Notes: generated by a model not told the origin, from the sequence alone. A stretch of 64,000 nt of DNA from Amoebophrya sp. A120 (GCA_905178155.1 CAJINV010000002.1:6366476-6430475), one strand, 5' to 3'. Shown: positions 5,651 to 51,900, counted from the stretch's first letter. Made by a program: numbers and translations.

Positions 5651-6367
5651 CAGAAGCGGTGTAGTAAAAGCTCGCCTCGTGCTGCAGTCTCGATGATGCA
5701 ACAGCAGCTACGCAAAAAAATTTTCGTGGCGCCAAAAGCCGCGTGAGTTTCGTTGTTATCTCGCCTGTGTCGAGCTCTGACATATGTCGCTGTTCGTCGT
5801 ATAAATTCAAATCCTTTTGTTCTTCACAAATAAACTTAGTCCACCGCAGGAGACACGATTTTGACAAGATTTATTGAACAACCGTTTCCTATCTCTCGGA
5901 CGCAAGAAAAGAGTGGACAGCAGGAGAGCAGAGGTTTTTGAGCCGAGGATTCTTCCTTGGCTGCTGCGGTATTTGAGAAAGTTGTTGTCCTTTTTATTTC
6001 TAGGAGGGGTCGAGCAAGAACAGCAAAGCCTTTCGATCTCGGACAGGTCCTCAGGATTTGATATTGGTGGATACAACGCGAACGCTATGTGTAGCGTTTA
6101 CCAATGTTTCAGTATTAACACCGCCACTACAAAAGGTGAATCCCTCTACTTCTTTGTGCCACGGTTTAGTATGGATGTACCTGCCCCAGTCCCAGCGGAG
6201 GGCCAAGAATTTTTTTGCAAAGCTTGATTAGTGGTTTAGACAGTGAGCTGTGGAGGTCGTATCTATGGTTCTGCAACTACATTTGCGTCCATCGGAGGCA
6301 GTACCAACTGCGGCATACCAGCAATCCTGGTAGAACTAAGAACGGATGACCCTCGGAACCTCAATGC

Positions 6368-9300
6368 ATGTCCCACCCCGAGTCTCCAGAGTTCGATCCT
6401 TTTGAGGATCGCAGGGAGAAGATATTACAAGCGGAGGATCTTCCGAGGACCGCAAGTCGGGATGTTGGAACAACAGCTAGTTCTTTCGGACCGGCAGGGA
6501 TAAGTGCCAGCGGGGACGACCACGGCCGCGACAAGGAAGCAGCTTTCAACAGCTTCTACTATCACGGCCAGCTGCGACGTGGAGGCGCGCCGGCGGACTT
6601 GTTTTCTACTTTCGGCTCAACACCAACATCTGGCTCGGCGTCGACACACGTACCCTCTTCTAGTTCTGCCGCGTCGTCCTCTTCCTGTTCTGCCGCGTCT
6701 TCGTCGACCGAAGACCACAACAGCAGCTTCGACAGAACAAGTTCTTACCACGTCGACTCCAGCAATCCAAACTACACGCTTCAGAAAAGTAATGTGCTAT
6801 CTTCATCTTCGACTTCGTCGCAGCATTATCCGAATTCCCGGGCGGCGTTTCGCGTTGTCGACGTGCAGCCGGTAGTGGAAGTGGAGCAGAAGTATCAATC
6901 GCCGATCAAAAAACTCATCGTCACACCCTCGAAAGAACAATCTTCTTCGGCGGGAAGTAGCAGCAGCTTCCACGATTTTTTCCGAAATAATTCTTCAGCG
7001 GCCGTTCCCTTCGATTTCGAAACTGTGCTGGGAGGACCAAGCGAAAGCCGCGAACGAACTGCACTTAGTCCAGCACAGTCACAGTTTCAACCTGGTGCCT
7101 CGTCCCCGGCTCTAACGATCTTCGGAACGTTGCCTAGTTCTAGTACGAGTTCTCACGTGTGTGAAGGTCGTGGACCAGACAGAACAAAAGCCGAGACCAG
7201 TTCCAGAGATCTTCAAACTCAGCAGATCAACACAAGCACGAACCCCCGCCAGGAAAGTTTCTCTACTAGTCCATCCGCAGACCACCCGTCTGCTGTTGTA
7301 AACCAGCTACGGCAGAGCGGCGCGCAGACATTTGGCAGTAGTTTTACCGGTGACGATTTGGACTTTCTGGCTTCAAGTGACGTTGCTCTACCCCCTCCAG
7401 CCGACAACACAAATAGCAGCGGCAGTTCGGTCGGGCGGGACTTTTCATTTGAAAGTAGGAGAAGACCGGTAGTAGAACAAAGTGAAACGCAAGCTACAGT
7501 AAAAAGAAGTCCGAAACTTCAAGGCCACGACGACGACGCGGATCCGCCGGTGTACAATATCTCCCGAGAGATCGTGTTTTACACGCTTCGGTCGATCCAG
7601 GATAAACTTAAGAGTAAGAGCAGCGACAGCAATATCAAATGTAAAAATGTCTGGGTCTGGAAGATTGCCAGGTTTGTCATGCACATTTTGCATGACTCCT
7701 GATATCTGTGATGCATGCCCTCGCATCACAGATTTTGTGAGGGCTTCCTGGTGCCTATACCGCATGACAAACGCTCTTTCCGTGTAGCACAACTTGGACT
7801 CTCTTTGCTGCGCATGCAATACAGATTTTTTTAGAATCCAAAATCAGCATGACAAGTTGCACTCTTCCAGACCCAGACACTTTTGCATTTGATAAGCAAG
7901 TCGACCCTACCCAACGAACCGCGGGAGCGGCCGGTGCCCTTCTCGCCAAAGTACGTGCCCAATAGCAAGGAGACTTCGCCCAACTTCTTTCGCTCGCGGA
8001 ACTACATCACCAACGGCGGCGTTTTTGGCTCCGTCGGTGCGGACGAGCGCACCTCACCGAACCAGCGCACGCAGTTTCTCTCCTCCAGCAGCAGCCCGAA
8101 GACGAGAAACAAGGACGTGGAACTGCAAGAGGTGACGTCGTCCCCCGAAGGAGCAGACCGGTCCTCGAAAAACACAAAGGCCTGGTCCCAAAAAAAAATG
8201 TCCCGTGGCGGCGGAGGTGGAAGTAACCTGGGCAGCAGCTACAGTGCGGTAGCAACGACCGTCACTGGAGGCGGAAGTTGTGGTCAACTGCAACACGGTG
8301 GGGGGACGACCGCAACGACACCGCAGACAGGCGACCTTGCGCTGCAGCCCGGGCAACAGCATTCGGGGATGATGTTGAATCCGCGGAAGAGCCTCCACTA
8401 CTACTGCTGGAAGTGCTGCACCGGGGTGGTGGCGTGCTTCGATTTCGTATTGAGAGGAAAAATCCCCCCTCTCCATATCGAAAAGGTATGTTTCCGAAAA
8501 TTTGTCTTGCTGATTTGAGACCACAGACCACGTCTCTCTTGCAAGAAGACAACTCCACAGGCTCTGCCGCATTATGCAGGCGGTTTGTGATGCTGTTGGG
8601 CCTACAGCGTGGACATTTCCCACGCTAAGCGCCTAGGTCAAAACCTCTCCACTCAGGCTTGGCAGGAGCCTGCTGGCCTCTACTGCAAGACAAACCCGAT
8701 TTGTATACGCAAATCCATAATCAGAAACTTCCTTTTTATATGGGGAGGGGGGACTTTTCTTTGTGATATTTCGTCCTCCGGCTGCTCGGGCCCATTCTGG
8801 TGCTCCTTGCGTTTGTGCTCTACGGGTTTGTCACCTACGTCTACATGCGGTTCTGCGTGCCCGTAATGGACTTCAGTTTCAATGGCGCCGCCGGGGGTTT
8901 GGGGTCATCTTCCGCATCGAACGGCAATGTTGACGTTGGCCCACATGAGGAACTGCACTCAGAAGCAAATCGCTCGACCGCAGCCGCGCAAAGCCCTACA
9001 CTGCACTACCCAAGTAGAACTTGCTCCCCTGCCCCTGCGGCCGCCCCAGAAGAACAGATACTGTTTGTACGTAGAAGTACAGATGAAGACACAAGTTCTG
9101 TTTAGTTCCGTCGACAGTGACGTGCTTTTGCAGAGGCGTCGCGGATGAAAACCCGGATTTTTTGCATATGCCATGGGAACAAAGCGCCGGAACAAGGCGG
9201 CATGGATTCTTGTAAAGGAGAACAAATGCATTTATTCATGCATCTACGCAGGACAAGCTCAGACCCGTACTGCGTAAAGATAAATTCTAGAAATTGTTAT

Positions 9301-11887
9301 TCGGGGTGGTCGCAAGGGTTATTTTCAACCGGATACGCCTTATTTGGACGTTTTTTGCGGGTTTTTCCTACTGTGGAATATCTGCTACAACCACTGGACT
9401 GCCATGCGAACAAGCCCGGGCTACCCGCCGAAGTACAGTTGTTGGACAAAGAATGTGTTTTGATACGTTGACAACGTTGCGAATCTCCCGTTCGCGAAAA
9501 CGCGTAGTTTTGTGACATCAAGTTTGCTTTGGTCGTTTATCGGATGTTTTTTTGTTTTCCTACTTTTGTAATTTGTGCTCATTCAATGTCCATGCGTGCC
9601 AAAAAATGGAAATTCCAGGTACGATGTAAACAACGACGAGCTTTTTGAGATGCTTGGCAACAGCGCGCACATAGACGTGCCCCAGGACCTGGAGTCCGGG
9701 CAGGTATGAAAGTGCACAACTCCCCGCTCCGCCGCCTCACGTCAAGGGCATGAAGAGCAATAAGACAGCCACCAGCGAGCCAGCCCGTGCATGACAACAA
9801 GCGCATGCGCCTCCAGCACTGTTCGAGCTTCCGGAGGTTGTCATGCAAACAGTGCCAGAAGGCAGCAACTGGATTCGCGATTTGCATGACGAAGCAGGAT
9901 GCGGGAGGGGAATGAGTTGCGCCCTCGGATAGCAGCCGAAGGTGTGCCACAAGTGTGACAGGATAAAACCCGCCCGGGCTCACCACTGTTCGGTCTGTCG
10001 GCAGTGTGTGTTGAAAATATCAAAAGCAAAAATCCCCCCTCCCCATATCAAAACGAAGTTTCTGATGCTGGACTTGCGTTCACAAATCAGATTTGTGTTG
10101 CTGGAGAGGACTGCAGGCCGCTACCGAGCCTGGGGAGAGATGTGTTTGCCTAGACGCTTAGCATGAAAAACGTCCGCGCTGAAGGCCCAACAGGATGACA
10201 AACCGCCCGCATAATGCGCCGGAGCCTGTGGAGTTGCCCTGTTGCAACACAGATGCGATTTGTGGTCACAAATCAGCAACACAAATTTTCGAAAACGCAC
10301 CTTGTCAATATGGGGAGGGGGGATGTTTCATTTTGATAGAAAATGGACCATCACTGTCCCTGGATCAACAACTGTGTTGGTACGCTTTGGATCATTTTTC
10401 TCCTATTTTTTTTGCGAGTTGTAGTCTTTCTCCATCTGCACCAATCTGAAACAAGTATGTAGTGGGCAAAATCCGTTTTTTCGTAGTGATTTCAGCAGCT
10501 CGAAATCATGACGTCGAAGCTGTCTCTTGTTGTTCAAACATTTGTTGAACATGATGCGCAGGAGGGGGTACTGCTGCGAAAAGAACTTAGCTCCGAAAGA
10601 ACGGAATCCATTTCATCATCATGATCGTCCACCAGGTTTTGGGAATTATCAGTACTTTGTGCTGTTTCTCTTTTGGCTCTACGTCGGCGTGGTGTTTGTT
10701 CTGATCACCTGCTACGCTCAGTTTCTGGAGATTTTCTACCACCCCTCGCGGTCACGGCACCGCGATTTCAACCACCGCGAGTACGTGGGCTTCATGTACT
10801 ATCCAAGAAAAAAAGTGTGTAAGTGTAACTTTTGTCGAGGAACAGCATCACAGATTTGTTTTGCATGACAGAGAAAACCTGCCATGCGTAGCTAGTACGC
10901 GAAAACACGTTGGAAAATTGACAGGCGTAACTGCATTGCAATATCTGCAAGACAAAGTTACACTTACACAGTTTTTTCCTTGCATATGTACATTCTCTGC
11001 GCCTCCATCTGCCTCGCCCTGTCGTTGCTCGGAGGCTTTCACCTGTACCTCCTCCTGACCAACCAAACCACGATTGAGTTCCAGCTGAACTGGATCGAAA
11101 AGCACGAGGCCAAGAAGCGCAATATGCACTGCAAATATCATGTCGCGGTCTGGAAACTTGGGATGCTGGGGGTAGACGGACGAGGGCAACGCCGCTACTA
11201 GTAGCCCAGCATAGCAAGTTCGTGAGCTGGGAGGTTTTAGCTGTGGTCTTTTTTGCATGACTTACTGCCGGTCTGCACGAGGGTAGCGTGCATCTCAGCA
11301 AGCTTGGGAGTGAGTCATGCTCGCCGGGCGTGACAAGTTCTGCTCCTGCATGCTTCCAGACCGTGACATCTTTGCAATGAATACGCGACGAGCCGTGGCG
11401 AAACGTGTACGACCTCGGACCCGCGCTGAACTACAAGCAAGTGCTATCGTAGCTGTGAGTGGGGGATTAGGTGTCGTCCCGTTTTCGATTATTTGAACGC
11501 CACGAAATAAATCCAAATTGGTTCGCAATTATATTGCAAACGCTCCTCCTGTTTCTCGGTCATGCACAACGTCATAGCATGCGGATTTCGTACCTATAGG
11601 TCGTCTCTGCTCTTCCGCGGACAAAATGGACGAGCTGGAGGGCGGGGCCGGAAGAATCTCCAATGTGACAGCGCGAATCGAGGGCTTTATCGCATGACAA
11701 GCTTCCTACAAGGCTGCTTCTTATTTTCATAATCTAGGGATGGGACGACAACTCTCTAGAAGTTTTCTCAGGTCGATAAGCAATGGGCGAATCTTTGCTA
11801 CTCGGCTGCTTCCCCTGGCTGGGCCGACCGAAGAGACGAGTTGAAGAAGGGTTGAGTTTCCCGAAAACCACCCGGTTCCACGTCTGA
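6368..11887 (+). CDS. DHHC-type protein S-acyltransferase (palmitoyltransferase) with long Ser-rich N-terminus, multi-exon
   Basis: Spliced product contains [37 protein letters not shown], TM segments, TNQTTIEF and NVYDLG. At least 7 introners plus canonical intron 10380-10635. Exon boundaries at 9.0-9.7 kb are not fully resolved. Confidence 0.9.
7633..7894. mobile_element. Introner, family A
   Basis: TIR tatcaaatgtaaaaatgtctgggtctggaaga / tcttccagacccagacacttttgcatttgata; perfect DR agcaa; join SSDS|KSTLP. Confidence 0.92.
8448..8768. mobile_element. Introner, family B
   Basis: TIR tattgagaggaaaaatcccccctctccatat / atatggggagggggga...gata; DR tttcg; join CFDFVLRLLG. Confidence 0.9.
9705..9931. 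mobile_element. Introner, family C-like (forms a GT-AG intron)
   Basis: tatgaaagtgcacaactcccc...gagttgcgccctcggata; DR gcagg/gcagc; join ESGQPKVCHKC. Confidence 0.85.
10018..10338. mobile_element. Introner, family B (opposite orientation to 8448), inside the DHHC domain
   Basis: DR gaaaa; join [10 protein letters not shown]; interior corresponds to the reverse complement of the 8448 copy. Confidence 0.93.
10800..10986. mobile_element. Introner, family D
   Basis: TIR tatccaagaaaaaaagtgtgtaagtgtaacttt / aaagttacacttacacagttttttccttgcata; DR tgtac; join GFMYILC. Confidence 0.9.
11123..11383. mobile_element. Introner, family A-like
   Basis: tatgcactgcaaata..gtctggaa / ttccagaccgtgacatctttgcaatgaata; DR cgcaa/cgcga; join KKR(N)EPWRNVYDLG. 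Confidence 0.8.
11445..11778. mobile_element. Degenerate introner
   Basis: tatcg...cgata ends; DR agtgc/agcaa; removal gives NYKQVMGES in frame to the stop at 11887. Confidence 0.6.
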
Positions 11888-14687
11888 CGGGGCGCAATAT
11901 GTTGCTTCAATAGAAGTTGATAATTTGTATCGAAATGTCCGAGATCGTTCCTAAATTTATCTTACGATGATCCTTCCAGGCCTGTTCGTGCTGTGCGACC
12001 AAAGTTGTGCAAGGCCACAAAGAACCTGTTCGGTGTGATAGTCTGTACATCGACGAAAAAGTAGACTATCAATGCACATAAGTTAGCTGCTGGCAGCGAG
12101 AGTTTGCTTTTCCTGAAGATTCAAAATCGCGAGTACTCTTTTAATTGGTTTCAGCCCCCCCAATGTATCTAACTATCAAAAATCTTGTATCATCTGTCTC
12201 TCTAACTAGAACTGAGAAGACACAAAATGACTACTCACGTATGATGATGTACATTGCAATATCGGGCAGATTGATGTTCTTTTGCGTCTTCTTGCACCTC
12301 TTTCAACTACAGCTGTATGCGAGGCAGACGCAGACCCCGAAACCGAGTGGTGCACGCAAAAAATGGCTGGAAGTGATTGCTTCTTCTAAACGCGAGCATG
12401 CGTTTGGGCCACGAAGAATGAACTAGGCGTAGCCGTAGAATGACTCTACTTCCTCTTACGCCGAAATCAAAGCAGAATGTGGAAGACTTCCTTGCAGTTC
12501 TTACCAGAGCATGATGCCTACAAGTACGGGCGGTTGTTCGGGTCAATCACTTTATCTATCATGGTCTTTTGTTTTGGTGTATGGAGTTTTGGACCGCATT
12601 CCTCTTCTTGTTTACTTTTGATTGCTCGGCGACGAGGAAGCGCAGGCTCGATCGCACGGCACCTGGAACCAGAACCTTCGGGTATGACTAGCTGCTAGTT
12701 TCGCGCAAAATTAGAACCTCCTCAAGTAGATCTTTCGTCGTTTCGGATAATTGTAATTCTGATCGGGGACATGACGGAAGTAGAAGTACAACAGGAAAAA
12801 CTCATTCACGAGAGATTCAATTTCTCGAGTGAAGCGCTGACCGGCGAGAGTGAAGTTGGTTCCTGTGGTAGTCGTCTCAGAGAGTTCTTGTTTCAGCATT
12901 TCGAGCGTAAAGCCGAAGGTGTGCAGCTTACAACTCTGACGTTTCGTTTGCGTCGTATCGCAGCGAGTGTGTGGTGGAAAAGGACAAGGATGCTAATGTT
13001 TCAAGTCTGAATTACGCTTGTGGCCTTTGGTCAGAAAGCAAATCTCTCCTACAATGCACTGTAAAAAGCGGGGACCACAAGAACCGATTTCCGCGAAGAG
13101 CTGCTTATGATAGATTTCATCCCAGCGATATATTCACGGTATTAGCAACGAGCTGGTTTCTTTTCATCTTCGTTCGCGGAAAAAACGGAAATGTACTCTG
13201 AAAAATAACAACAACAATAAAATAGTGGAGCACTATCCTCGTAAAAAATGTTTCAAAAATTTATCGCCGCGGTCGACACTTTCTACGAGTGGTTGCTGCA
13301 GCCGATGGACCAGTGGGGGAGCAAAGCAAGACGGCCTCAGTAATATCTTTTTTTTTTGTTACGGGAAATTGATAAATGAAGTTCCATTTGAAACTTAGTT
13401 TCATCTATGCAAAATTCTAAAGTCACATTCATTCTCTTAACCAGCCGAGGGAATGGCACGGCGTTTGACGAAGCAGGCGGCGGAGCAGGACCCCCTGCAG
13501 GAGAAGGCGGGGGTGGCGGCGGGTTGATGGGGCTAGGGAGATGAAAATAGGTTTCTGATTTCTTGCAGGAGTGGGAGCCGAAGTAAAGAAGAACTCAAGA
13601 GAGGATAGAACATTCATTGCTACATGTCTTTTGGCTTTCAGTAATGGATTTTTCACACACAGAGAAAGACAAAGAGAAAAAGAGCGCATACCATAGGTCG
13701 AGAAGCTCATATTACACCCTTTTTTGTCTCCTGCATAGGCGATGTGTGGCGGTTTGTGCGAAGGAGGAGCGGGCACGACGGACGCCGGTGCCGGCGGCGG
13801 TGGGAAATGAGGGACGGTGTAGGGACACGAGCGAGAAAAAGTTTCTTTCGGTGGTGCTGTGTAGCAACAATGTAGACGCTATGAAAGCACAACGAACTGT
13901 AAAAATGTTTTAGAAAATGCTCCTGCAACTGCAAACAATAGAATGAGATACTGCAAAACAAAAAGAATGCTGTTGATACTAGAAGGTTGGTTGGCCTTCG
14001 GGTGTCCACCGGACTATTTTCGCGAGCGCGATATACATAGCACGTGCTAGTACAAAAAGCCACTCGAGGACGACCAGCACCAGAACTAATATGCAAGGTT
14101 TTTTGATGTCTAATGGCATCGACGAGGATATGCTTTTCAGCAAAACGACGTAGCCGCACTTTTATTATGATATTCGTAGAGTGTTCTTGCAGCTTGAGAA
14201 TACAACAGCGTTGAAAAGATGTTTCAGTCCAGCAACTTACTGCGTCTGAAGGAACAGATTGATTCCCCGCAGCGCGGCGGCCTGGGGTGTCAGCAGCTTG
14301 CTACCACCGACCTTCCTTCCGTGCTACCACCTGCCGAGATGAAATGTTGATAATCACAATTGAAATGAAGAAATGCGATGCGACTCACCTTGCCTTCAGA
14401 GCGTAGCTGTCCCGGGAAGTGGTCACTTCCATGTTGGTGTCCTCACATAGTGTTCTCTAGAAAAGGGGCAAAGAATGTTAACCTGGTAGGTTCAACAATG
14501 AGTGTGACGCAGGATCTGTTCGGGTCGGGGAAACACTCATGTAAGTGGTCCTAGTGCTTGGTGGTGGGCATCGCCCTTTATTTCGTAGGGAAAATTAGCG
14601 CAGCTTGGGAAGACATTTTGGGAGAGTGACGGTGTAACAAATTCTGATTTTGAGATCCGGTCGTTGTCTTAAGCTTAACTTGCGAAC

Positions 14688-15023
14688 ATGATGGACAAAG
14701 TTAGGGATGATCGCGAAAAAAGTTCGCATTGTCGATATACAATCGCCTCTATCGCAGTCGCTCTTCTACTGTTGGTTCTTCGCCTATCGTGTGGTTGTCG
14801 ATGTCGAATCGCTAGCACAGATGAAATATCGTTCAGACAAGCCACAGGGCGAGCGTCGCAAGGGAGTTCGACTTCGGCTGAGAACGAAACGATTTCAGTC
14901 GCTCCAGTACGAAATAAAGTAAAAGTATCTACAGATGTTGCGCATACATTTTTCGACGAAAATTTGACATTTTCCTTGTTTGGTGCATGTGCGCTAGGGC
15001 GTCCTCGTCCAGAAGGAGATTAG
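14688..15023 (+). CDS. Possible signal-anchor first exon of the downstream acidic protein
   Basis: Hydrophobic stretch IASIAVALLLLVLRL after the Met; junction to 15282 not resolved. Confidence 0.3.
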   Translation: MMDKVRDDREKSSHCRYTIASIAVALLLLVLRLSCGCRCRIASTDEISFRQATGRASQGSSTSAENETISVAPVRNKVKVSTDVAHTFFDENLTFSLFGACALGRPRPEGD

Positions 15024-15281
15024 GAGAGAGGACATGCTTGTGGTATAAGAAGACTTTAGGTTGCTGTGGATAATGTTTATGTTTTACTTATTTTGCCAGA
15101 AAGATTATGAATGCTGGGTGGACGAATGAATGGACTTCTAGGCTTCTAGCGATCGGCCGCAGGAGACTGGAACCACCACTCCCTGTGTAGGGCAACATCA
15201 AGGTTTTCGTCTTCTTCGACGCTGGACCTGGTGCGGTGTGTTCGGATTCGGAACAACAAAAAGCGACAATAAAACGGAAAA

Positions 15282-18200
15282 ATGCCGCGTGAATCAAGCG
15301 CGCATCGCGCTACGTCTAAGCGGATCAACGCACTGTATGCGGTTCGCTGGCTGTACTCCCGCACGGGGCTAAAAATCTTCTTCCTCGTTCACCTGGCTGT
15401 CCGCCTGTTTGCGCGAAAAACGGAGGAGAAACGCACGAGCACGGAACAACACCAAATTACGACGAACCAGTTGGAGATGAAGACCGAACAAACTACAGAG
15501 GAAATGCGCCGCACCGGGGCTTCAAGACAGGAAAGCAAGACTGGAGCGGGGCTGCGGAAGCGGAAAAGAAGATTGGTCGTGCGAAAGCGAAAAAGAAAAA
15601 AAGCAGCCGATGACGATGCCGATGATGCTCTTGACTTTATGCAGCATTTGGCGCATTTGCATGATATGTCGCTGCACCCTCACGACGAATATCTCGACCC
15701 CGACCTCGGGAATCGTGATGACGACGACTTCGAACATGGTTCTTTTTGGACGAAGAGTCTAGCGGAGATTGATGACGAAACGCCACCCACGTGGAAAAGC
15801 AAATACGGGCGACCGTCTGATTGGGCTTTTACTGACGGGGTCAGCCAGCGCGACATCATCGCTTTCGCGGAAATCAAAATGGAAGATGAAGAAGGCAACG
15901 TAGTGAATGATGGTGATTGGCCAATTACTATCAACTGCAAATATGTCTAGGTCTGCAAGAGTGCAAGACTTGTAATGCTGAACTCACATCATCATCCCAA
16001 GGCCAAACTCTGTAATGCGTGTTGCGGAAGGGCGGTGTTTGTTCTGTGTCATGCAAAAACGTCGCCTGGTCGCATGCGTCTTCCGCACCACAAGACCGTT
16101 CAAAAATGTGTCATGCTCGGTTGTGTACTCTAGTCATTTCTTCATTCTTGTAGTAGCATGACAAGTTTGAGTTTCCAGTTCCAGACATATTTGCATGTGA
16201 TAATTACGAAAGAGGAATGGGAGGCCGTAGGCGGAAGAGACGAGCAGTGGGCCTGGCTCTGCTGGACAAACCCCCATGCGCCGGGGGAAGACGCTGATTG
16301 TGACGAAATAAAAGAATATTCATGGCAAATATTTTGTCTGGGTCGGGAAATAAGTTGTGAGGCTTGTCTGTGAATAAATAAGTGTTGTGCTGCCGCGCAT
16401 GACTGGTTTTTGCGCGGTGGCTATGTGTTGCCTTTTTCGCATGAGAAACTGCGTGTAGTTTGCATTACATACAAATAGAGTGGAGTTGTCGGCGGGGGAG
16501 CATGCATTACAGCAGTGCAGAGTCATGCCGCGCAAGCATGACACGTCTCGCCTTCTTCCGGACCCAGGCATAAGTATTTGCATTTGATAAAGAAGAGGAT
16601 TGGAACCTGCACCCAAATCCGGGTGCAGACACAGACGGTCCGCATACAGATATTCTGCGTAAAAACGCTCCCACACAATATTTGTCATGCGAGTCTGCAT
16701 GCCCCGAATGTCTCTCATGCGCAGTATGTAATTTGTATGTAAGGCGTTGGGTTACCAGAGCCGATCCACATAACAACAGCAGTCCGCCGAGGAGCATTTT
16801 CTGAGGGTTTTTTTAAAGTAGTCACTCTCGAATCAGGATCATGTTGCAACGCGGCTTTTATAGCCAAGCATGACTACACTGACTACATTGTCCGAAAAAT
16901 TCGGCAGCCTACGGAGTTCACAAAGCTTCTTGATTTGTCCAGCAGATTAATGCGCCAGCATGACTATGGGATGCTGGGGACGTTTTCACACAGGATACGG
17001 AAGCCGTGTGGGTGGCAATGGTCTGCAGCAAATTCCGCCACGTCAATCGCAGCCTTGTCATCGCCAAAATGGGCAGCTGAAGATGCTCAAAGCTCTGACA
17101 TAGCCGTTGACGAAAAGTACACGGCCCTGGGTTTGAGCGATAACGAGAACCGGTTTCTGCAATTACTCGACGGAAAACAGAAGGGGACTCGGTTACCGAG
17201 TCGGATGTTTCCAGCCTTTGCGGCGGTGAACATGTGCCCTGGCCGCACCTGCCCCGCCGCGCTTTCGATGTGGATCTGGCGAGCTTTCAATTGTGCGCCC
17301 AACACTACGGCATTCACCTCGACGACGGCGACGATCGATTGTTCAAAATTTTGACCAGGCACACGGACGTGGGCGAAGTCGTATCCATCAACGGGGAAAA
17401 AAAGGTCTCGGGCAGCACGGTTAGCACCGACGTGATGAGCAATGCGCAAGAGCAGGACTGGTCGCTCCAGGCTATGACGCAGTGGGCGCAACATAACCTT
17501 GACGAAGGCAGCAATAACGGCGAGGGCGATCCTGTTGACACGCCTGTTGTACGTCAGTTGTCCATAACTGACAATAACGTAGAGGCCACGGGAGTGACCT
17601 CTACCAACCCGCAGGGACACATCGAGGAGGTCTCCTACGATCTGGATGGCGACGACGGCTCAAGCACCCCCGACGAGCAGGCTCTCGAAAAACTGATGAC
17701 GACGGCTGGCGGGCAGCACTTGACGCTGACCGAGCTGCTCGCCATGTGTGAGGGCCAGCTGGACTCTGGTGCGCTGACCGCAGGCGGTTTCAAAGACTGT
17801 GCTGCGGATCCCGATAACGGCGGGGGTACGCAGCTGACGGATGATCGGCTTTGGCACGTGATCGCGGGCCAGTTTGATACCGACGGAGACGGTAGAGTCA
17901 CATCAGCGGACGGAAGAGCGGAGGGCAGCACTACGACGGTTTCCATCGCTGACATCAAAAACTCCGCACTGCAGTACGACGACCTCCATGACGAGTCGAT
18001 CTCTCATAGCGGCTCGAAGCACGTCGACGCGGACAAACTGAGAGACATCGCTGACCGGCTGGCGGCGCGCAACGGGGACGGGAGTGCCAGTGGCAGCAGC
18101 GGCGGCGAGGGAGGTGGAGCGGAAAGTGGTGAAGGCCAGGCGGTGGGGTCGACGATCACGAAAAACCAGTGGGTGCACACGCTGGGCCGCAAGGGTTCCG

Positions 18201-37770: not shown

Positions 37771-40700
37771 ATGTCGCGGGCTCGTCGTTTCACCACGCTT
37801 GTACGACTTGTTGTACCAGCGACGGCACTGTTCGCCGCGCGGTTGCAGAAACTCTCGCCCCTCGCGGTCTGGTCATTTGCCACGACTACTTCTTTGCTCC
37901 TTCCCCGCGTCGCGGCAACGAAATCGAAAACACGAGCAACCGCCTCGACAACCGAGGAAGCCGAGAATTTCGACGCTCTGCTGAAGTTTCTGGATACGAT
38001 GAGCAAGGAAATCGATGCGGAGATCGACCAGACAGAGCAGCTCGTGAAGAAGAAGGAGTGCTTTTGCAAGAAAGAACAAGAGCGGCTCGGTGTGCGGTTG
38101 AAAGAAGAAAGAGACGAAAAGATTCCGGTACTGCAGGCTGAGCTGAAGGAGACGCTCGGGACGCTGGGTCAGCTCAAGATCGAGATCCCGGTATGCGAAG
38201 TGAAATACTGTCGTCCATGAGAAGTAGATGACCAGCTCTATCTGCGAATTATGTGCGTGTTCAAATAGGAGAGATTACATAGATACACCACGCGATTTGT
38301 TGTCATGTGTTTTTGTACGTGTTTTATCCACCATTCAATCATCGCAAAAGCGCCGCTGATGTTGTCATGTGACGGCGATTTGACTTCGGATACCGAGAAC
38401 TGGAAGAGAAGGTGAAAGACTTACAGACTGAGAAGAATACGACCATCACGACGCGGGAAGAGGAAAAAAAGCAATTTACCATGGACGAAAAAAATTTAAA
38501 CACCTTGATCCAGACCTGCACAGAAGCGATCAAGGTTTTGGGGAAAAAAGAAAAAGCTGAAAACAGAGCAGCGGACGACCAGAAGGAAGCGACTGGGGAA
38601 CAGGAAGTTGCGAAAAGTGCGTTATTATCAGTGCAAAAAGCGCTCTTGCAAGGTCAACATAGCGATCAAAGATTAATATTTCGGGCATCAAAAACAGCAG
38701 GGAGACCACTTTATTCAGAAGCCAGCCAGCAACTGCTGCAACAGTCCGCAACCGCTGCTGCACTGGCGAAGAACTCCGACCGAATACTGGGTATCAAATG
38801 CAAAAATGTCTGGGTCTGGAAGATTGCGAGATTTGTCATGCTTGTCTGGCATGACCAAAAAGTTTGTGATGCGTGTCCAAGAAGAGACCCTTTTGCCTGT
38901 CATGCACAAACGCAGTTTGTCATGCGAAATACGCAACACAAGGAAGCGCAGATATTTCTCATGCTTGCCTATGCATTACAGAGCATTCACTATTCCCAAC
39001 GCAGCATTACAAGTTTCCAGACCCAGACATTTTTGCATTTGATACTGGGAATGCTGAAGCAAATGCGGGACAACGCGGAGACCGAGTTGGCCGAGGCGAC
39101 GGGTATCAAATGCAAATATGTCTGGGTCTGGAAGAGTCTAAACTTGTGATGCTGTCTCTGGATTGGAAAAAGATTTCTATTGCATGACCAGGAAGAGGAG
39201 TAGATTTTGTGCTCCGCGGAGATGGCATTTGTCATGCGGAATAGGTATGAGGAAGCGCTCTAAAAATCTGTGATGCTACGGCATGCATCACAGATACATG
39301 GCCTTTTGTTCGTTCCCTTCTGCATTTTTGTCCTTGCTCCCCGAAAGGGGATTTCCTGTGGGGGGGGGTGCGGGAAGTCAGAAAACAAATGGCACGAAAG
39401 ACGCCTGCTAGCGAGCTGATCAAGATAAGTAAACTATTTGACTGTGATGCCATGGAAAGGCGTGGCATTAGTACGACGCCAGTTCCCCCTGCTAGGGGCG
39501 ATCGCAGGGTAGTTCTAATTTGTGCGGGCTGTGTGTAATGCGGTGGTGCGATACAAACTACAACAGAGAAAAAGATCAAGCTCGGGCCGCGCGCGATGCT
39601 CATCCCATTCGTTTTTTCCGACGAATCACTTCCTTCACCAGGGCCTTGCTCAACCCTGGACCAGAACGAGTAGGACAGAGGACCCCAGAGGTAGGCACTG
39701 TAGCGGAAAGTTGGAGCAAAACTAATTTTTTTTGAAAACGAACCCAATAGGAGCCGACCTGCGTGGATGGTTACAAAACAGGTAGCTTGACCCCAAATGG
39801 CAATGATCATTGGGAGCAGCAGAGCGCAGCAGGACCCCGGGACTGCAACAGCTCACCCCTGTTTTAACTTAGACATACGCAGTGCACCGAGTATGCCACT
39901 ACCTCGACCCCTCAAGAAAAGAAGTAGCCCCCCCAACTACAAACTCGCCGTCCGCGATCAGGATCCCATGCGTACTAACCAACATTGTGCGAACCGAGAT
40001 CCCGCGGGGCACAGGGTCTGGGCGGCTCGAAGCAGAACGCGCAGCACAAGCGGGAGACAACACATCCAAAGGTGGGGATGGTCTCAGGTCGTTCAGGTCC
40101 GCCAAGGGTTGCGTCTCGCTATCAGGGTTTCGCCAACTCCGCGGGGGCGTTGCGGGTATTTCCCTAAAACACCAAAACCGGCACAAATTGGGCCGGCAGT
40201 CCGGGTAATTGCTCACCAGCCGGTTTGTATGACGAAGAAGGTGCTCGACGAAGGAAGAAGTAAGCATGTAATTAGCACCTCCGGTTGGTAGAGCGATCGG
40301 CTACCGAGGCACGTCAGGGTGGCGTCGCTACTTCAATTCAATTCAATGGAAAATATGCATGACAAATCTAGAAATCTTCCAGACCCAGACATTTTTACTC
40401 TTGATAGCGGGAGCGGAGAAGCAAAAAGCTGCATCCACGGCGAAGCTCTTGAGGGCGAAGAACCAGGAACTGAACGCGCTGCAGCAGCAACTAGACGAAA
40501 AGAAGGCGAAGTTTTCGGATTTGAAGGACGACGAGGGGCAGGCGTTTGAGGAGTTGGAGAATTCGAAAAAATCAGTAGCGCTGGTGGAGGAAAATTTACT
40601 TGCAATCAAAACCGACTGCGATAGTTCCTTAACCGATTTGAACGAACAGAAGAACAATTTGTCGTCCGAGCAGGAGTCGTCTCAAGTGCAAATATGTCTG

Positions 40701-43225
40701 GGTCTGGAAGAATGCAACTTGTGACGCTGCATTTGGATTCCAAAAAAATTTGTATTGCATGAGCAGCAAAGGGAATGCAATTTTTGCTATGCGGAGAAAG
40801 CATTTGTCGTGCGGAATAGGCAGCAAGAACCCCCTCAAAAAATATGTGACGCTACGGCATGCATCACAGACATCATGGATCATGCAAAACGTGCATGACA
40901 TCTTCCAGACCCAGACATATTTGCAATTGATAAGTCGCTTTCAAACGCAGTGAAGATCCTTGAGGCGGACGAGATCGAGAAGCAACGGAAGCGCGCTTTG
41001 TTTCTCCAGAAACAGAAGAGGTTGATGGACGAGAAGGAAAGAGAACAACGAGTTATCGACGCGGAGATTGAAAAGCGGAGGAGACTGATCGTCGAAAAAG
41101 AAGAGAAGGACGACGCGGCGGCGGAAAGAGATGAGGAAAGGCGCACAGGAGATTTGAAAAAAGAGCAAGCGAGCTCGGACATCATGCTGAATGATTTCGT
41201 GGAGAGTGAGATCACGACGACTTCTGCGGCTGGAGGCGAGAGCGAAGGAAGAACAGGTAGAAGCAGTACTTCTAGCGATTCCTTCGTGCTGTCCGCTGCT
41301 GTGACAAAAAAGTTTGCGTCCGCCAACGCGCTGGCTGACGCCGTGGTTGCGCAAGCGGTTGCGGAAGGAGGTGCGGGAACCGGGGTCGTATTGTCGCGGA
41401 AAAATGAGAATGCGAAAGGTCTTCAGGCGTTGCAGGAGAAAGATGAGATCGACCACGACACGACCCAACTCGCCTTCAAACACGTAGATGAAACTCTTTC
41501 TGCAGGAGGGCAAAAGAACCGTTTGGGCCGGAGAGCTGTCCGGAGCGGGAATGACAAGAAGCCACTCTTGCATCACAAGAGGGGAGGTAAAAACACGCAT
41601 AAGGACCACATGCAAGCATCCTCTGGCTCAAAGAAGACAAAGAAGAATCTGCAGAAGAAGACATCACAAGGCAAAAATAAATCTGCTCCCTCTAGTAGTA
41701 TTTCTGTGAACAAGAAGATTATGAAGTACGACACGAAGAGCCACCGGTTCGTCACGTCCTTCTTGCAAACGAGACAACAAGAAGCGCAAACGAAAGCGGG
41801 AACTACAATTACCTCTTTGCACGAGATGAATGCCATGGTGGACGACATTATGAAAGTCCCCATCCAGAAGAAAAAGAAGAAGCAAAACGAGTTCCAGGAG
41901 GTGATTGCTGCGAGTGAGGTGATGGCGGAGCAGGTGAACAAAGACCAGCAGCAGCACGAGAAAGAGAAGGATAGGTGTGAAACCAGCCTGAGAAGTTTGA
42001 AGCAAGAAACGGAAAAGAAGCAACTTCTCGTGAAGAACGAATTCGAAGCGAAGATCGAGCTTTTGGGGGCGAAATTTTCCAAGTTGAAGGAGAAATCCGC
42101 CGATAAGAAGCAGGAACTAGCGGAGCTGAAAGAGGAAATCAAAGAATTGGAGGAGGACCGTCTCGCCGAAAACGAGGAGTTTCTGAACGAAGTGGCAAAA
42201 CAGGCGACCATGACGCGGGCACTTCGGAAAGCGATTGCGGCTTTAAAGCAGGCGAAAACAGGCTCGAAGAAAAATATTAAACGAAGCAAATCAAATACCA
42301 GGAGCAAAGCCACCAAACCGCTGGAAGAGCTGCTGGCAAAAACGGAAAAGAAGATCCAATCTCTGCAGGTGTTAGAGGAGGGAACCGAGAAAAAATTTTC
42401 GCACGAAAAGTCGAAGGCGGAAGAAGTTTTGAAAGAAGTGAAAAAAGTATCCAAGAAAAAAACTGTGTTAGTGTAACTTTCTTTGTCTGACAGCATCACA
42501 AATTTGCTCTACATGACAGAGAAAACCTGTCATGCGTGGCTTGTAAGGGAAAATACACATGAAAAAAGGACTTCATGGCTGTGTGGCATGACAGGTGTAA
42601 CTCTGTTGCATGTTTTGCATTAAAGAGTTACACTTACACAGTTTTTGTCTTGCATAAAAGGAGAATGCGGACCTGAAAGCGGCGAAGTCCAGGCTGGAGG
42701 AGGAGAAGGAGGCGAATATTGTGAGGAAAAATCCCCCCTCCCCATATCGAAAGCGGAATTTGTGTTGCTGTATTTGAGTACACAAATCACATCTGTCTTG
42801 CTAGAGAGGACTGCAGACCCATATCAAGCCTGAGCAGAGATGCTTTGACTTAGGCGCTTAGCATGAGAAGCGTCCGTGATGTTGGCTCAACAGCATGACA
42901 AACCGCCTCCATAATGGGACGGAAGCTGCTGCCCTTGTCTTCTTGCAACACAAACGTGATTTGTGACCTCAAATCAGCAACACAAATTTTCGAAAACCTA
43001 CCTCTTCAATATGGGGAGGGGGGATTTTTCCTTGCGATAGCGAAGGAGAAGGAATTAGAACTGGCGCAGCAAGAATTGGAAACGTTAGAAAAAGAGCTAC
43101 AGGAAACGCAGAAGTCGTGTGCGAAAATTCTGATATCCTTCGACGAGAAGACGAACGAAAGGAAAAACGAGGTGGAAGGGCTAAAAGCGGTGGGGAGGAT
43201 TCTTGCGAATGGTGGGGGAAAGTGA
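37771..43225 (+). CDS. Secreted-type coiled-coil protein, multi-exon
   Basis: N-terminal hydrophobic region, heptad-rich E/K/L sequence, RILGMLKQMRD and SFLQ motifs; 6 introners join ORFs 37771-42914 in frame. Confidence 0.8.
38192..38392. mobile_element. Introner (unassigned family)
   Basis: tatgcgaagtgaaat / atttgacttcggata; DR cccgg/ccgag; join IEIPELEEK. Confidence 0.75.
38792..39044. mobile_element. Introner, family A
   Basis: Long TIR; DR ctggg; join RILGMLKQM. Confidence 0.92.
39104..40406. mobile_element. Family A introner carrying an about 1.05-kb nested insertion
   Basis: Family A left part 39104-39301 and right part about 40347-40406; DR acggg/gcggg; join EATGAEKQ. Confidence 0.85.
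39302..40346. mobile_element. Unidentified nested insertion ending in (TTCAA)3
   Basis: Absent from other family A copies; no convincing ORF. Confidence 0.6.
40680..40932. mobile_element. Introner, family A (reverse orientation vs 7633; TCTC start)
   Basis: DR agtcg; join QESLSNAVK. Confidence 0.9.
42448..42656. mobile_element. Introner, family D
   Basis: tatccaagaaaaaaactgtg / cacagtttttgtcttgcata; DR aaaag/aaagg; join VKKENADLK. Confidence 0.88.
42717..43039. mobile_element. Introner, family B
   Basis: DR gcgaa; join KEAKEKEL. Confidence 0.92.
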
Positions 43226-44103: not shown

Positions 44104-47100
44104 ATGGTTCTGCGCGGACGCGGTGATCCGACGCAGAAGCAGGATGTGAGCTACAAGCTCCCGCCCGCGGACAAGCGCGCGGGCGTTTTTGACAAAAATT
44201 TTCAAGTTTTGAACACGTCGATTGAAGTCTGGCTCGATGCGATCCACGAACAGGAATCGAAGGCGAAAAAAGCCGCAGCTGCTGCCGCAGAGCAGGAAGA
44301 GAAGGATAAAGAAGCTCCTGCCTCGACTACTCCGTCGTCGAAAGCGCCTTCCTCCAAGGGCCCCGGGTCCTCGAAGAAGGAACCCGGGTCCTCGAAGAAG
44401 GAACCCGGCTCGAAGAAGGAGCCAGGCTCCGCGCGATCGCAAAATAAAGCAGGTTCGGATGCTGGTGCCAGTTCAGCAGCAGACCCGCAAACGCCAGTTC
44501 TTCCCACGTTCAAGAAGGTCCAGCTCACGCAGAAAATTCAGAACTCCTACATGCAACTGCGGGATTTGTTGAACGCATGGGTGCAGGACACGAGGGACCG
44601 GGAAAATCTGCGAAAATCGTTTGTGACGGACAACAACGTGCCGCAGTTGGTGCTGTTGATCGTGCTGTGTGAGCAGGCGCCGTTGCTGGAAGCCGACATG
44701 TTCGACGCCATGAATTTGGACGTAACGAAACTTATTTCATAAATGTTTTTTCTTTCATGCGGAAGTTCAAACATAGATTCATTGTATACCGTAGCTAGCT
44801 TCTTCTGCGATACTAGTGTCTTGCCATGCGCATGCCTGGCAACTGGTCTCGATACTGATACTCGATTTAGGCCGGGGCCCTTGGAGGTCAATGATTCGAA
44901 ACATGAGAAGCTCTTTCACTTTTCTACCTTCGTGCTATCCTGGGGTCACAACATCAAAAAACTAAAATAACAGGAAGCGAGTCGCAAGAAGCAATCCGAC
45001 GATCGTTGGGCGGGGTGCAAGAAGGCCGCGGAGATCGTGATCGACGTGGTTCTGGATGTGCACCAGAGGAACCAGATGCGTTTGAAGCTTGAGGAGGAAC
45101 GGAGGCGATTAGCCGGGGAAAAGATTCCCTCGGGGCCGCCGTTTACCAACGAAGAGGAGATGAAATCTTGGCTGAGCAGCTTGAAGGAGGAGCCAGCTGT
45201 TGAAGAAGAGCCAGAACGACCACCTGTTGTGTCAGAACCCCCGCCTCCACAAATTCCAGAGCCGAAATCCGAACCGCCCCCAAAGCCGGAGAAGCCAGCG
45301 CCCCCCGTCCCACCGAGTAAACCGAAGAGCCCAGTCCCGCCGCAGGCACTGCTTTTGAAGAACCTCGTATGGAAGCGTCAGGTTTGAAATCCTCAAAGTT
45401 GAAATAATTTGTAATGCATAAAATGCGATACAAAAAGTGACTCTATTGCAGAGGACCCACGGGAGGCAGATGATAGTCCTGGTAAGGGTCAAAAATTGGA
45501 CTGCTAACTAGCATGACAGAAGGCAGCTCTTTTGCCCTAAACCGCATGACAGACTCGCTTCCAGGACCGGGAAAATTTGTCATGCACCGACTACAAACTG
45601 TAGGTCTAACTGGTATCCGTTTTATGCATGACAAACTATTTCAACTTTGACGATTTCAAACCTGACACATCCATACCTCGAGCAGCAGGAGAAATTGAAG
45701 CCGGAGGCGCACAAGAAACTGCTATCAAATGTAAAAATGTCTGGGTCTGGAAGATTGCAACTTGTCATGCTGTTTTTGGACTCTAAAAAAAATTGTATTG
45801 CATGACCAGCAAAATGGGTACGCTTTTTGCCACTTTTTGCTACACAGACAGGCCATTTCTCATGCGGAAGATGCATCAGGAAGCCCTCTAAAAGTCTGCG
45901 ATGCTAGTTCAAGCATTACAGGCATCATAGGTCATGAGAAATATGCATGACAAATCTTGCATTCTTCCAGACCCAGACATTTTTACAGTTGATAACTGCT
46001 GATGATCAACCATTTGGAAGAGGAGAACGAGAAGCAAAGAACCCTTTTGACACACGAAAAACAATTGAAACAACAGATCGAAATCATCCAGCAGGAACAA
46101 ATCGAGCAGAAGCTGCTCGTCACCAGCCGCATCGACTTGTTCAAAAAACTGATCAAGGACGCCATCAGACGGAGCGACAAATTCACCGACGAGCGGAAGT
46201 GGCTGCTGACGCAGAAGATGAATCTGACGTTCGACCAATTGCTGGCGAAGAAGGACCTGACCGTGTTGGAAAAGCACCTCTACACGTTCGGCAGCAAATC
46301 CAGAAGTTCGCAGATGGGCCGGCTGGAAAAGGAGTTGCTTGAGCACGAAGAGGACACGAAGAAGCAAGCCATCGGCGATTTGCAGCAGCGGCTGGAGGAG
46401 TTGCTTGCTTTGGCGAACTCGAAGGACAAACACAAGTTTTTGACGAAGAACGGGGAAGTGGAGAAAAAGCTAATGTCGGACTTGGAACGGGAACTCATCG
46501 AAATGGAAAACATGCCCACCACGGCGTCCAGTGGAAATGACGAGATGAATGGAAATGTTCGGAGCGAAGGAAAAAAACCGAGAAACAGCCAAACAACTAC
46601 GCGAAGGAGCAGACGGCGCACGACAGGGTCTGTGTCGTCGATGCCGGGAATAAGGCCGAACAGTTCAACAACTTCCCCGCGCGGGGGGCCACCGGTCGTG
46701 CGAAACAGCAACTGGTCGAGCCGAAGCCGGACGTCGCACACGGAGGACCGCTTCTATCTCCACCCGTTTTCCCGACAGGTCGGGTCCGTGGTCCAGGAAA
46801 TTCAAAGGCAACGCGACTACACGGTGGAGGCCCTGGTGTCCGCCAGGCGGGCATCGCGGGGGGTCAACGTGCACGAAGAAATCATGGCCGCTCAAGGTGT
46901 AGTTGATCAACAGATGCCCTCCTGGCTTCGCATGAGCAGCAAGAAATCCATGCTGTCTTCCCGGTCCTCTCTCACGGAGGCTGTCACCACCGCGGGGAGA
47001 CGCTCCGTTGGGTCGGTCGGGGGTACCATGCAGCACATCGAGTACGACACGAAAACCGGGAGGTTGATGAAGAAAAAGCTGAGCGTGCACAGCAGCAAAG

Positions 47101-48923: not shown

Positions 48924-51900
48924 ATGTCTTCTATCATGACGAAACCTACTAAGAAAAGAGGCAGCACGAAGGCGGCTGTTTTTCCGTGCTGGTTCTACTT
49001 TTGCTTCCGTTTCGTCACCTTCCTCCAAGGACTCCCAACCCTGATCTTCGCTGTCGACCGGCAACAGTTTAGCAATGCGGCCACGAGACGAGTAAAGGTG
49101 GCAGCGGATCATGATCAACGACCTCGTCCCGAAGCAGGTGGAGGAACTACTACACCACCAGCAGATGTTGAAAATGGCGCAACGAAATTACCACCTAGCT
49201 CTGCTGCTGCGGCAGGAGTAGGAGGTCCGCCTGGGGTAGTACCGGGAAATATTAAGGGTGAAACCCTAGACAAAAAGAACGCAGAAGAGCAAAAACCTGC
49301 CGCAAAAGACAATCCAACACAAATTGTCTTCGATGAGCGCCTGGACGAATCGGGCCTGAAGGATATAAATGGTGAGGACGAGGACGTGGACGAACTGAAG
49401 CCGAGCGACGCTTCTGCGGAGCGAAAAATCGGACGGGAGCAGGAGGATTTGGTGGACAATCTCGTAAAGGTAAATTACCCGGTCTTATCAATTGTAAAAA
49501 TGTCTGGGTCTGGAAGATTCTGACACTTGTCATGCACATTTTGCATGAGCCCTGATGTCTGTGATGCATGCCCTAGCATCACAGATTCTTCGAGAGCTTC
49601 TTGATGCCTATTCCGCATGACAAATGCCCTCTCCGTGTAGCAAAAATTGCATTCCTGATGGTACTCATGCAATACAGATTTTTCTGGAATCCAAATGCAG
49701 CATCACAGGTTGCATTCTTCCAGACCCAGACATTTTTACATTTGATAGGTCTATCAGCTCGAACTGCACGCCACCTACAACCTGTGGAAACGCGCACAGG
49801 AGTTGAAACCGGACCTGTTTTCCTACATTGTGGCCTCGCTGAACCCAATCACGGAAGTCGGGGGGCTACGGGAGGACGAGGAGAAGGTGTGGTGGCTGCG
49901 GTACATCGTCATGGCGGCGTTTTACATGCTCATTTTGTCCTTTGCCGCCAACATGATGAGCGACGGCGCAGAACTGCTCATGCTGGTGCCCGAGTATGTG
50001 GACCTGGTCGGGTCGATCGTGTTGCCGCTGTTGGGCGCGTTCCCGGACGCGCTGTTCGTTTTGTTTTCCGGCTTGGGTCCAAGCGAGTTGGTGTACCGGA
50101 GAGTCACGGCCGGGTTCGGGTTTCTGGCTGGGTCCAGCTGCTTTCTGCTCTGCATCCCCCTAGCCGGCGTGATGGCGGCGGGCCGGGTGCCGGTGAGGAA
50201 CAACCCCAACAATCCGAAACAGCTCCTCGCAGACTACACCACGGAGGGCAAGGAGAAGGGCAAGACAAGCCGGGTGTGGGATTCGGGGGCGAGTCTGAAC
50301 CGCTCCGTGTTCAACGCCCTGCTGTGGACGTTTCTGACCTCCTTCACCACGGGGTTTGGCATTTTTGCAGCCTACGACTCAAAAGACCAGATGGTCGGGA
50401 TGGCGGAAAAATGGACCAACATCACGGAGAGCTCCGACGAGTGGCGCATGGTAGCCTTGCAGGAATACGTGGCGGACTTGAAGGGGGATAGCACACCCTT
50501 CTCGCAACAGAAGCCATTCGTGAGGTACTATGAATATTCTTGATCAAAGCAAGAGCGCTTGTCCAAGCTGAGTTTCGGTTTCCCTTTTAATCCCCCGATC
50601 TTGATATTCCGGCACTTCGTGGAGATGGTGAATCCAGCTGCCCGTAAAACTAACTTGGGGTAGTGTTTCGCTTTCGCTTATAAAATCATGATGCGCATTG
50701 AGATGAGTAAGTTATGAAGAGCAAGAAGCAAATCGCCACTACGTGTCAGCACGACCGCGCTGTCAATATAATTCCGTGTCCACCGATCCACAGGACCTAC
50801 TGGTGGTGGGAAGACGAGAACGCGTACTGGCGGTCCTACAGCACCATTGCGAAGCACCAGAAATTTTGGCTCCAAATGGGTTCCGGCGTGTGCCTGGCTT
50901 TGTGCGTGATGTACTGCGTCGCCAATCTTCGCGTCGCGCATAAGAAGAACCAGGCCCGGCAGGCCGGAGAGAATGAAACAGTTTCTACTGCAGGAGGCGC
51001 GGCGGGCCACCACGGGCACGGACCACAACCAAAGCAACTGCAACTACGGCACGGCGATACCAGTATGAAACACCAGCCGCTGTTCTCTTTCACCATATCC
51101 TGAGTAAAAACGTACCCACACCATAGTCAAGATGGGAAATCGGCTAGACAAATCCACAAGTTTTGGCTGTTTTGCATGACAAATTTGGATTCGTAGTGTA
51201 GTGCTGTTTGAGCTAGCTCAGCAGCATCACAGATCTAGCATACCATGCTGATTGGAGCATGACAAATTTCAAAACACCCTTAGAAAATGCTTCTCATGGG
51301 GCTCCGCATGGCAAACATTTTAAGCATGCAGATTTGCATGACAACTATGGTGTGGGTACGTTTTCACTCAGGATACACCAACGAGTCGCATCATCAGGAC
51401 ATGGTGGCCATCCGGAGTTCGCTGCGGCGGTCAATATTGTAAGGAAAAATCCCCCCTCCCCATATCGAAAAAGTATGATTCCGAAAATTTGTGTTGCTGA
51501 TTTGAGACCACAAATCACGTCTGTCTTGCAAGAAGACAAGTGCAGAAGCTTCCGCTCCATTATGGAAGCGATTTGGCATGCTGTTGCGCCTAGGGGGCAG
51601 CCGTGTGTAATGCTAAGCAACTAGACCCAAACACCCCTACCTAGGCCGAGGATCTGGCTGCGCTGCCTCACTGCAAGACAAATCAGATTTGTGTACGCAG
51701 ATCCGGCATCAGAAACTTCGTTTTGATATGGGGAGGGGGGATTTTTCCTTTTGATAGTCAAGTATGATTGACAACAACGAGTTGACGTTCCAAGCGGCGA
51801 TGGAGGGCTTGGTGCGGAAGAAAACGCTGAGCCCGCAGGAGAAGCAGCGTTATTTCCGCGAGACGCTGCGGCCCTTCTTCGAGCGGCGCGCCCAGCGGAT

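Follow-up and report, generated by a model that had tools for sequence, protein, structure and literature searches.

The 64,000-nt window of Amoebophrya sp. A120 DNA analysed here carries a + strand gene for a DHHC palmitoyltransferase, crowded with short insertions that interrupt its coding sequence (Table 1). Pfam domain PF01529 matches exons 9936-10016 (E 8e-7) and 10638-10796 (E 1.5e-4), and one insertion, 10018-10338, breaks the DHHC domain directly before the DHHC motif. A JmjC-domain gene at 3560-5647 on the + strand (PF08007, E 3e-15) is expressed in RNA-type run X3, and the element beside it at 3336-3554 is apparently spliced, as inferred from the start of a contig piece. The whole window yielded a list of 39 short elements that have TAT…ATA at their ends, carry inverted repeats some 30 nt long and are flanked by a 5-bp duplication, perfect in 23 and mismatched in 16; a further 10 decayed elements were revealed by RNA joints, contig pieces and protein records. 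The candidate 13234-13737 was mis-paired and is left out of these counts; contig piece lengths place its left end more likely at 13534. Both family B copies in the DHHC gene retain an intact duplication (5/5 bases). Families A, B, C and E conform to the end definition given for the introner elements of A120 by Farhat et al. 2021 (PMC7789003), namely TAT, seven variable bases and an A-run, with direct repeats of 3-5 nt in the accessible text, and by this motif and the names of matching protein records the window elements are those published introners. In A25 the ends begin with TTA instead.

Table 1. Elements, introns and host gene referred to in the text (window coordinates)
Feature	Position	Strand	Remarks
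DHHC palmitoyltransferase host gene	6350..11850 (end approximate)	+	937-aa open frame after 10 RNA joints
Family A element, orientation 1	7633..7894	.	spliced, 267 nt
Family B element, orientation 1	8448..8768	.	duplication 8443-8447 and 8769-8773; intron 8447-8772, GT..TC
Decayed element-type intron, CT..CC	9006..9339	+	single possible cut, fixes register
Canonical GT-AG intron	9433..9618	+	RNA joint, same transcript
Family D element	9705..9931	.	register intron GT..AG; retained form also present
Family B element, orientation 2	10018..10338	.	register intron 10017-10342, AT..AA
Canonical GT-AG intron	10380..10635	+	RNA joint; retained form also present
Family C element	10800..10986	.	spliced, 192 nt
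A-like element	11123..11383	.	two possible cuts, first = register (AT..CG); retained form present
Decayed element-type intron, CT..CA	11444..11782	+	single possible cut, fixes register; retained form present
Family E element, opposite to 51096	16651..16997	.	removal: frame evidence only
Family A element, orientation 2, nested insert ~1050 nt	39104..40406	.	one 1308-nt intron in P0001
Family A element, orientation 2	40680..40932	.	removed in P0001
Family B element, orientation 2	42717..43039	.	removed in P0001; locus L128 reversed at 99.7%
Family A element, orientation 2	45723..45994	.	frame evidence only
Family A element, orientation 1	49486..49747	.	frame evidence only
Family B element, orientation 1	51435..51756	.	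frame evidence only

The elements show terminal inverted repeats, a duplication of constant length and near-identical dispersed copies (one pair at 99.7% with different flanks), and are, judged by these sequence traits, non-autonomous and transposon-like (TIR/MITE-like). Two are enlarged, copy 39104 extending to 40406 and copy 60672 to 62660, by nested inserts at 39295-40345 (~1050 nt, in a family A element) and 60743-62447 (~1700 nt, in a family E element); neither insert gave a Pfam match in five frames.

Elements of the same family lie in both orientations within + strand genes. Of the two B copies in the DHHC gene (321 nt each), one matches the reverse complement of the other at 80% in an alignment of 333 nt. 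When the inverted repeats are kept from influencing the score by trimming 40 nt off each element end, the interiors score 246 as reverse complements and 26 co-oriented, the best of 30 shuffles reaching 25. By the same measure the four B copies of the window fall into two pairs, 8448 and 51435 being co-oriented and 10018 and 42717 opposite to both, exactly the arrangement claimed in an earlier note on this DNA. That note also placed 8448 and 10018 in one gene, which the joined 937-aa frame with its intact DHHC domain bears out. In family A, 7633, for which opposition had been claimed, and also 49486 are opposite to 39104, 40680 and 45723 (scores 137-219 vs 20-33). The corresponding claim for family E, that 16651 is opposite to 21994, 33679, 51096 and 60672, stands directly for 51096 (52 opposite, 16 co-oriented, best shuffle 24, a weaker signal than in A and B); for the other three direct interior scores are below 50 and opposition follows by transitivity and from blastn matches of 65-80 nt on the minus strand. 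Pairwise alignment, the check the note had suggested, finds interiors that are reverse-complementary, not co-oriented, in families A and B and, less strongly, in E. The host genes are all on the + strand, as the note had it: removing the element plus one copy of the duplication gave long, uninterrupted + frames (390-1517 aa) in 6/6 tested, and a codon model called 31/39 window junctions + and none minus, an optimistic figure since it was trained on the same junctions. As a separate observation, interior transitions in the four opposite-orientation pairs favour A/C on the transcribed-sense strand (34/93 the other way, p 0.012), those in co-oriented pairs being 39/81; the skew in opposite pairs possibly reflects a transcription-linked mutation bias.

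A pattern scan extended the orientation survey to at least 133 loci, all in a single second assembly, where the evidence is of sequence and not of RNA. Among the matches listed, the codon model called the strand of 153/233 unique elements and left 80 uncalled, and 38 of the 39 loci with at least two strand calls were internally consistent. Family B, with at least 60 strand-called copies, is found in the two orientations at 23:37 (p 0.09), or 23:30 under a stricter cut (p 0.41); the other families, again among the matches listed, stand at 3:9 (A), 7:3 (A-like) and 2:6 (E). Listed pairs at least 90% identical comprise 19 that are opposite and 13 that are co-oriented, and locus L128 matches window copy 42717 at 99.7% identity, though reversed and with different flanks. 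Because near-identical copies occur reversed, orientation is likely to be set at insertion.

Removal of the elements was followed in the DHHC gene by a survey of joints over 7400-12000 in contigs of runs X3, X4 and X6 (two samples, one study); the evidence is of contigs, not stranded reads, and the RNA type of these runs is presumed. Ten joints are identical in all three covering RNA-type runs. Among them 8441->8768 and 10012->10339 each skip 326 nt, i.e. a B copy (8448-8768 and 10018-10338, respectively) plus 5 nt, in 3/3 runs, and depth within the B copies is 0-4 vs 33-66 in exons. In X6 six consecutive joints share a depth of 33.4, and a 2477-nt contig holds 298 nt beyond its listed pieces, matching in length the next four exons (93+81+81+43); from this depth and length arithmetic a single X6 contig most likely lacks both B copies. 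The earlier note had named removal of one orientation only as a result that would speak against it, and both B orientations are removed from RNA. Family B is where RNA covers both orientations; in family A the second orientation comes from a protein record and frames. Raw RNA runs X9, X10 and X11 gave 105, 4 and 0 matching reads, leave exons uncovered and stand outside the 3/3 count. The 105 reads of X9 match only element ends, mostly of family A (7632-7666, 7846-7878), with one dominant foreign flank, and do not cover exons; they are read as coming from an abundant transcript, in a different strain or sample, that carries a related element.

Run X1, by its flat depth over introns and silent genes, behaves as DNA, and X3, with zero depth over most of 14539-21208, behaves as RNA. 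X1 contigs extend from exon 24-30 nt into each element with the junction unbroken, and cover whole elements at a flat depth of 20-29 (8639-10045 and 10961-17744). Alongside spliced forms (59-111), X3 contains retained forms of 9705, 11123 and 11444 (5-28), and a canonical intron is likewise partly retained (11.8 vs 75 spliced). Such retained forms are not DNA carry-over, because depth in the RNA runs falls to 0 in the inner bin of intron 9006-9339. The last intron of the gene, 11444-11782, has the highest retained share (28 vs 59 in X3, 23 vs 61 in X4 and 6 vs 99 in X6). Since RNA-type contigs skip the B copies while the DNA-type run keeps them, removal occurs at the RNA level and is unlikely to be IES-like, and the alternative of removal from DNA raised in the earlier note is not supported. 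Features of ciliate-type IESs are likewise lacking: the elements are present in X1, and the junctions keep one 5-bp duplication and no TA of the element.

The joints share one cut register, N|TAY…ATA-NNNN|, in which the left cut precedes TAY by 1 nt and the right cut follows ATA by 4 nt, taking the element and exactly 5 nt. All eight element-type RNA joints admit this register, which a random cut would fit with a chance of 0.0018. Most joints can slide on their direct repeats and it is the unslidable ones that fix the register: 9006-9339 and 11444-11782 (2/8) allow no other cut, the 11123 joint allows the register cut or one further right, and the 9705 joint the register cut or up to 4 further left. 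Among introns implied by protein records, the register is the last of three possible cuts at 33678 and the first of three at 26864, so that mismatched duplications there too limit it from both sides. Neither B joint has an equivalent cut giving GT..AG, and both lack the GT/GC…AG borders of canonical U2 introns. Applied to the 153 strand-called copies among the matches listed, the register yields 51 end combinations with GT..AG in only 4/153, G at +1 in 54/153 and an AG end in 16/153, frequencies near the duplication's own composition; copies that read GT..AG by chance, 9705 (RNA joint) and 42448 (protein record), keep the register cut. An apparent depletion of T at duplication position 5 in the window (3/39) is absent from the larger set (28/153 of the matches listed), and the idea that selection favours GT or AG there was rejected. 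The interior is dispensable, the copy with a ~1-kb insert (39104-40406) being removed whole in P0001.

Protein records provided a test of the register at the level of annotation and at codon resolution. Three exon searches led to NCBI proteins named Amoebophrya sp. A120 (P0001, P0002 and P0005) that map exactly to the window, and together with P0006, which has no name, these records point to 28 introns, of which 4 are plain GT-AG and the other 24 element-type. Nineteen of the 24 fit the register exactly and five with a one-base variant; seven were absent from the prior list of 39 elements. The splicing predicted for 38373-43225 equals P0001 over 820/820 aa, and in this record A copies 39104-40406 and 40680, which lie opposite to the RNA-verified 7633, are taken out along with B copy 42717. 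Across the four junctions examined the restored protein is collinear with two orthologues. One exception is P0005 (PF00650/PF03765), which reads in frame through element 28431-28701, the removal of which leaves an open but shorter end; this is likely to be an annotation miss or a retained intron. In the same record an A-like element, 26556-26813, lies inside canonical GT-AG intron 26344-26832, its duplication decayed to 2/5.

The earlier note had located a symmetric removal signal in the hairpin formed by the inverted repeats. Removal of both orientations and a signal at mirrored ends agree with this, but the hairpin itself is a further step: mirrored ends do not single it out, because an inverted repeat gives the same directional motifs either way round. 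Predicted end pairing is strong in both B copies (z about -7) and runs from -0.6 to -4.2 in ten decayed introns and from -1.1 to +1.2 in seven canonical ones (decayed vs canonical p 0.0002), with the sense strand pairing better than the antisense in 8/10 decayed introns. Stems including flanks are predicted at about -90 to -155 kcal/mol. In-register terminal pairs have a predicted probability near 0 in 9006, 9705 and 13533 and a low one in 11444 and 16651. Among the matches listed, no more than 68-83 of the 153 copies have Watson-Crick pairs at arm positions 4-7; positions 1-3 and 11-13 are most constant, partly forced by the finder and the search pattern, and decay has gone about as far in the 5' A-run as in the 3' U-run (29 vs 35 of 50). 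A window hint of selection for G·U wobble (42:32, Fisher p 0.012 vs interiors) failed to replicate, the arms of the 153 listed copies showing no G·U excess (146:169, p 0.22). Ends of family B polarised to the transcript, suggested by left-arm TATTG and a native pairing better than flipped, each in 3/4 window copies, were also rejected, as the arm travels with the interior and 20/60 strand-called B copies among the matches listed carry its reverse complement 3'. The usual donor is GTRAG; the canonical introns here (9433, 10380, 13340, 25115, 26344, 30226 and 31610) instead have GTAC five times, GTAT once and GTAA once, so that 6/7 are GTAY with a pyrimidine at +4, and TAY at +2..+4 is also how the elements begin.

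These results suggest a mechanism that would run from insertion to a restored message. Insertion makes the 5-bp duplication found at the elements, in an orientation that is free, as seen directly in the window and as the codon model suggests in the second assembly. Because element ends are inverted repeats, the transcript has the same ends either way round, and the sequences show an intron that always opens N-TAY and closes with ATA, preceded by a U-run and followed by four free bases, regardless of interior or direction. Two cuts then take out the element and exactly 5 nt, as the RNA contigs show, and restore the original message. Jointly we regard these four steps as highly probable. Pairing of the arms likely juxtaposes the two ends, in place of a U1 that is reportedly lost, and the spliceosome is the likely agent of cutting, because canonical introns here also start G-TAY. 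In canonical splicing the second step relies on G+1 and on the terminal AG; both are free here, which counts against spliceosomal catalysis. The accessible text of PMC7789003 records U2, U4, U5, U6 and 83/89 spliceosomal proteins in A120 and U1 as not found. The full reading, in which elements are absent from RNA in both orientations through a modified U2-type spliceosome predicted to read the mirrored ends, we put at about an even chance.

Among explanations that dispense with splicing, excision from DNA at some life stage, ciliate-IES-like, would supply transcripts from already cleaned templates. IES ends have a consensus resembling the TAY start, and one TA is left at the junction after elimination. 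The inverted element ends beginning TAY do resemble that consensus, and only one DNA-type sample (X1) bears on the matter, with 543 more joints beyond those listed and contigs that drop rare variants. Yet that sample enters and spans the elements unbroken, the RNA runs hold 9705, 11123 and 11444 in retained form much as they do a canonical intron, which DNA carry-over does not explain, and both TA ends are removed with none kept, so this account is already largely refuted and very improbable. Strong stems and direct repeats are a classic setting for template switching by reverse transcriptase, and the predicted stability of the stems and the 5-bp direct repeats could make the joints such artefacts. 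However, two joints without a direct repeat share the register, both B copies are removed near completely, the DHHC domain and most genes are broken unless the elements are taken out, and the restored protein is collinear with orthologues; of all the readings this is the least credible.

Two further accounts accept removal from RNA and differ on what reads the ends. In one, which follows a proposal for the nonconventional introns of euglenids, a non-spliceosomal nuclease and ligase might recognise the terminal stem and cut a set distance away from it. End dinucleotides are not conserved and U1 was not found (PMC7789003, accessible text), decayed copies keep their end pairing, the geometry parallels Euglena N3CDG…CH'G N5-6, where pairing is needed in knock-ins (PMC12501133, accessible text), and euglenid introns are reported in the accessible text of PMC11282704 to exit as circles, with no lariats. 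The 5' TAY at +2..+4 is, however, the same as in canonical donors here (6/7), the GT..AG-ended copies 9705 and 42448 are cut at the same register, and none of the 10 listed joints goes back on itself, a weak test on contigs; we hold such an enzyme possible but doubtful. Alternatively the spliceosome may read mirrored motifs only, a TAY donor and a U-run with ATA as tract and branch point, the pairing being a relic of transposition. Young copies show no wobble excess (153 copies, matches listed), several spliced copies have poor predicted in-register pairing, and arm positions 1-3 and 11-13 are the most constant, in part imposed by the finder and search pattern. But end pairing outlasts the decay of the duplication in decayed introns, the motif is short and alone frequent by chance (0.0018 per cut), and the A-run and U-run decay at about the same rate, so we consider a motif-only code unlikely. 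As against these, a modified spliceosome aided by paired ends is the reading we prefer.

More tentatively, and with the odds against it, the register could belong to a second splicing code that operates without the canonical spliceosome, a paired-end ruler whose 1+4 offset equals the 5-bp duplication. If true, any element would be lost from RNA without trace, wherever it had inserted and whichever way it pointed, and the code would be a convergent alveolate partner of that in Euglena and would account for the tens of thousands of elements that interrupt coding sequence.

Non-canonical introns are described for A120 as more than 60% of its introns, and the accessible text gives splice sites as variable relative to the hairpin and borders as unknown, a supplement legend placing repeats 1-5 nt from splice sites (PMC7789003). 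Our elements share with those introners the organism, the inverted and direct repeats and the RNA-supported non-canonical removal; that accessible text is silent on orientation, and what we add is that the register is fixed at -1/+4 and that elements of both orientations are removed. A120 families are listed in the available part of PMC12130899 as TIR elements co-opting both splice sites. Elsewhere, intron creation in two orientations is on record for several classes in Polarella glacialis (bioRxiv 10.1101/2020.10.14.339549) and for Aureococcus introners (Huff 2016, via PMC10228655), and the methods of PMC9860276 allow for it, as far as the accessible parts of these sources go. Introners of Polarella and of Aureococcus/Micromonas are, like those here, inverted-repeat DNA transposons with target duplications that make introns either way round, but in the same accessible accounts they use G[T/C/A] donors, AG acceptors and particular targets and show an orientation bias, whereas in A120 neither dinucleotide is needed, targets look unselected and the bias is not significant (matches listed). 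Insertion in both orientations alone was thus already known, and the fixed cut rule free of dinucleotides is the new part.

A closer parallel in geometry is offered by introns of euglenids (PMC4770533, PMC12501133) and a hemistasiid diplonemid (PMC12621601), which according to the accessible text have no GT-AG, paired ends, a fixed spacing from motif to cut, slidable direct repeats and a proposed MITE origin, all as in A120. A120 elements have the paired intron ends of euglenids by predicted pairing; on inspection, however, they show N1-TAY … ATA-N4 in place of the euglenid N3-CDG … CH'G-N5-6 followed by a purine, and the lineages are unrelated. Introns of Fritillaria borealis (Henriet 2019, via the accessible parts of PMC11282704 and PMC12621601) also have MITE-like ends and target duplications and are reported to be removed by an adapted U2 spliceosome, but prefer the ends AG-AC and AG-AT, whereas A120 prefers none. 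The literature searched, with some key papers, figures and supplements beyond reach, holds no statement on orientation or a fixed register for A120, and neither is given in the accessible text of PMC11282704, PMC11453091, PMC12621601, PMC12005148 or PMC12787238. A register fixed at -1/+4, which needs no particular dinucleotides and serves either orientation, therefore appears undescribed for the published A120 system.

The fixed register predicts the positions of branch or circle junctions, the bases to mutate and how slidable borders should be re-annotated. It also gives a simple reason why A120 tolerates its transposon invasion: target sequence and orientation are irrelevant because the offsets sum to the length of the duplication and the ends are mirrored. 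Intron gain in A120 would then be more permissive than in Polarella and Aureococcus, where canonical sites must be recruited.

Other repeats were noted in the window. A direct duplication of 655 nt at 91% links 17624-18263 and 18965-19610, a 33-nt tandem array occupies 1737-1901, and 55184-55252 forms with 56403-56472 an inverted repeat of 70 nt (90%) that does not belong to the TAT type and has its arms ~1150 nt apart.
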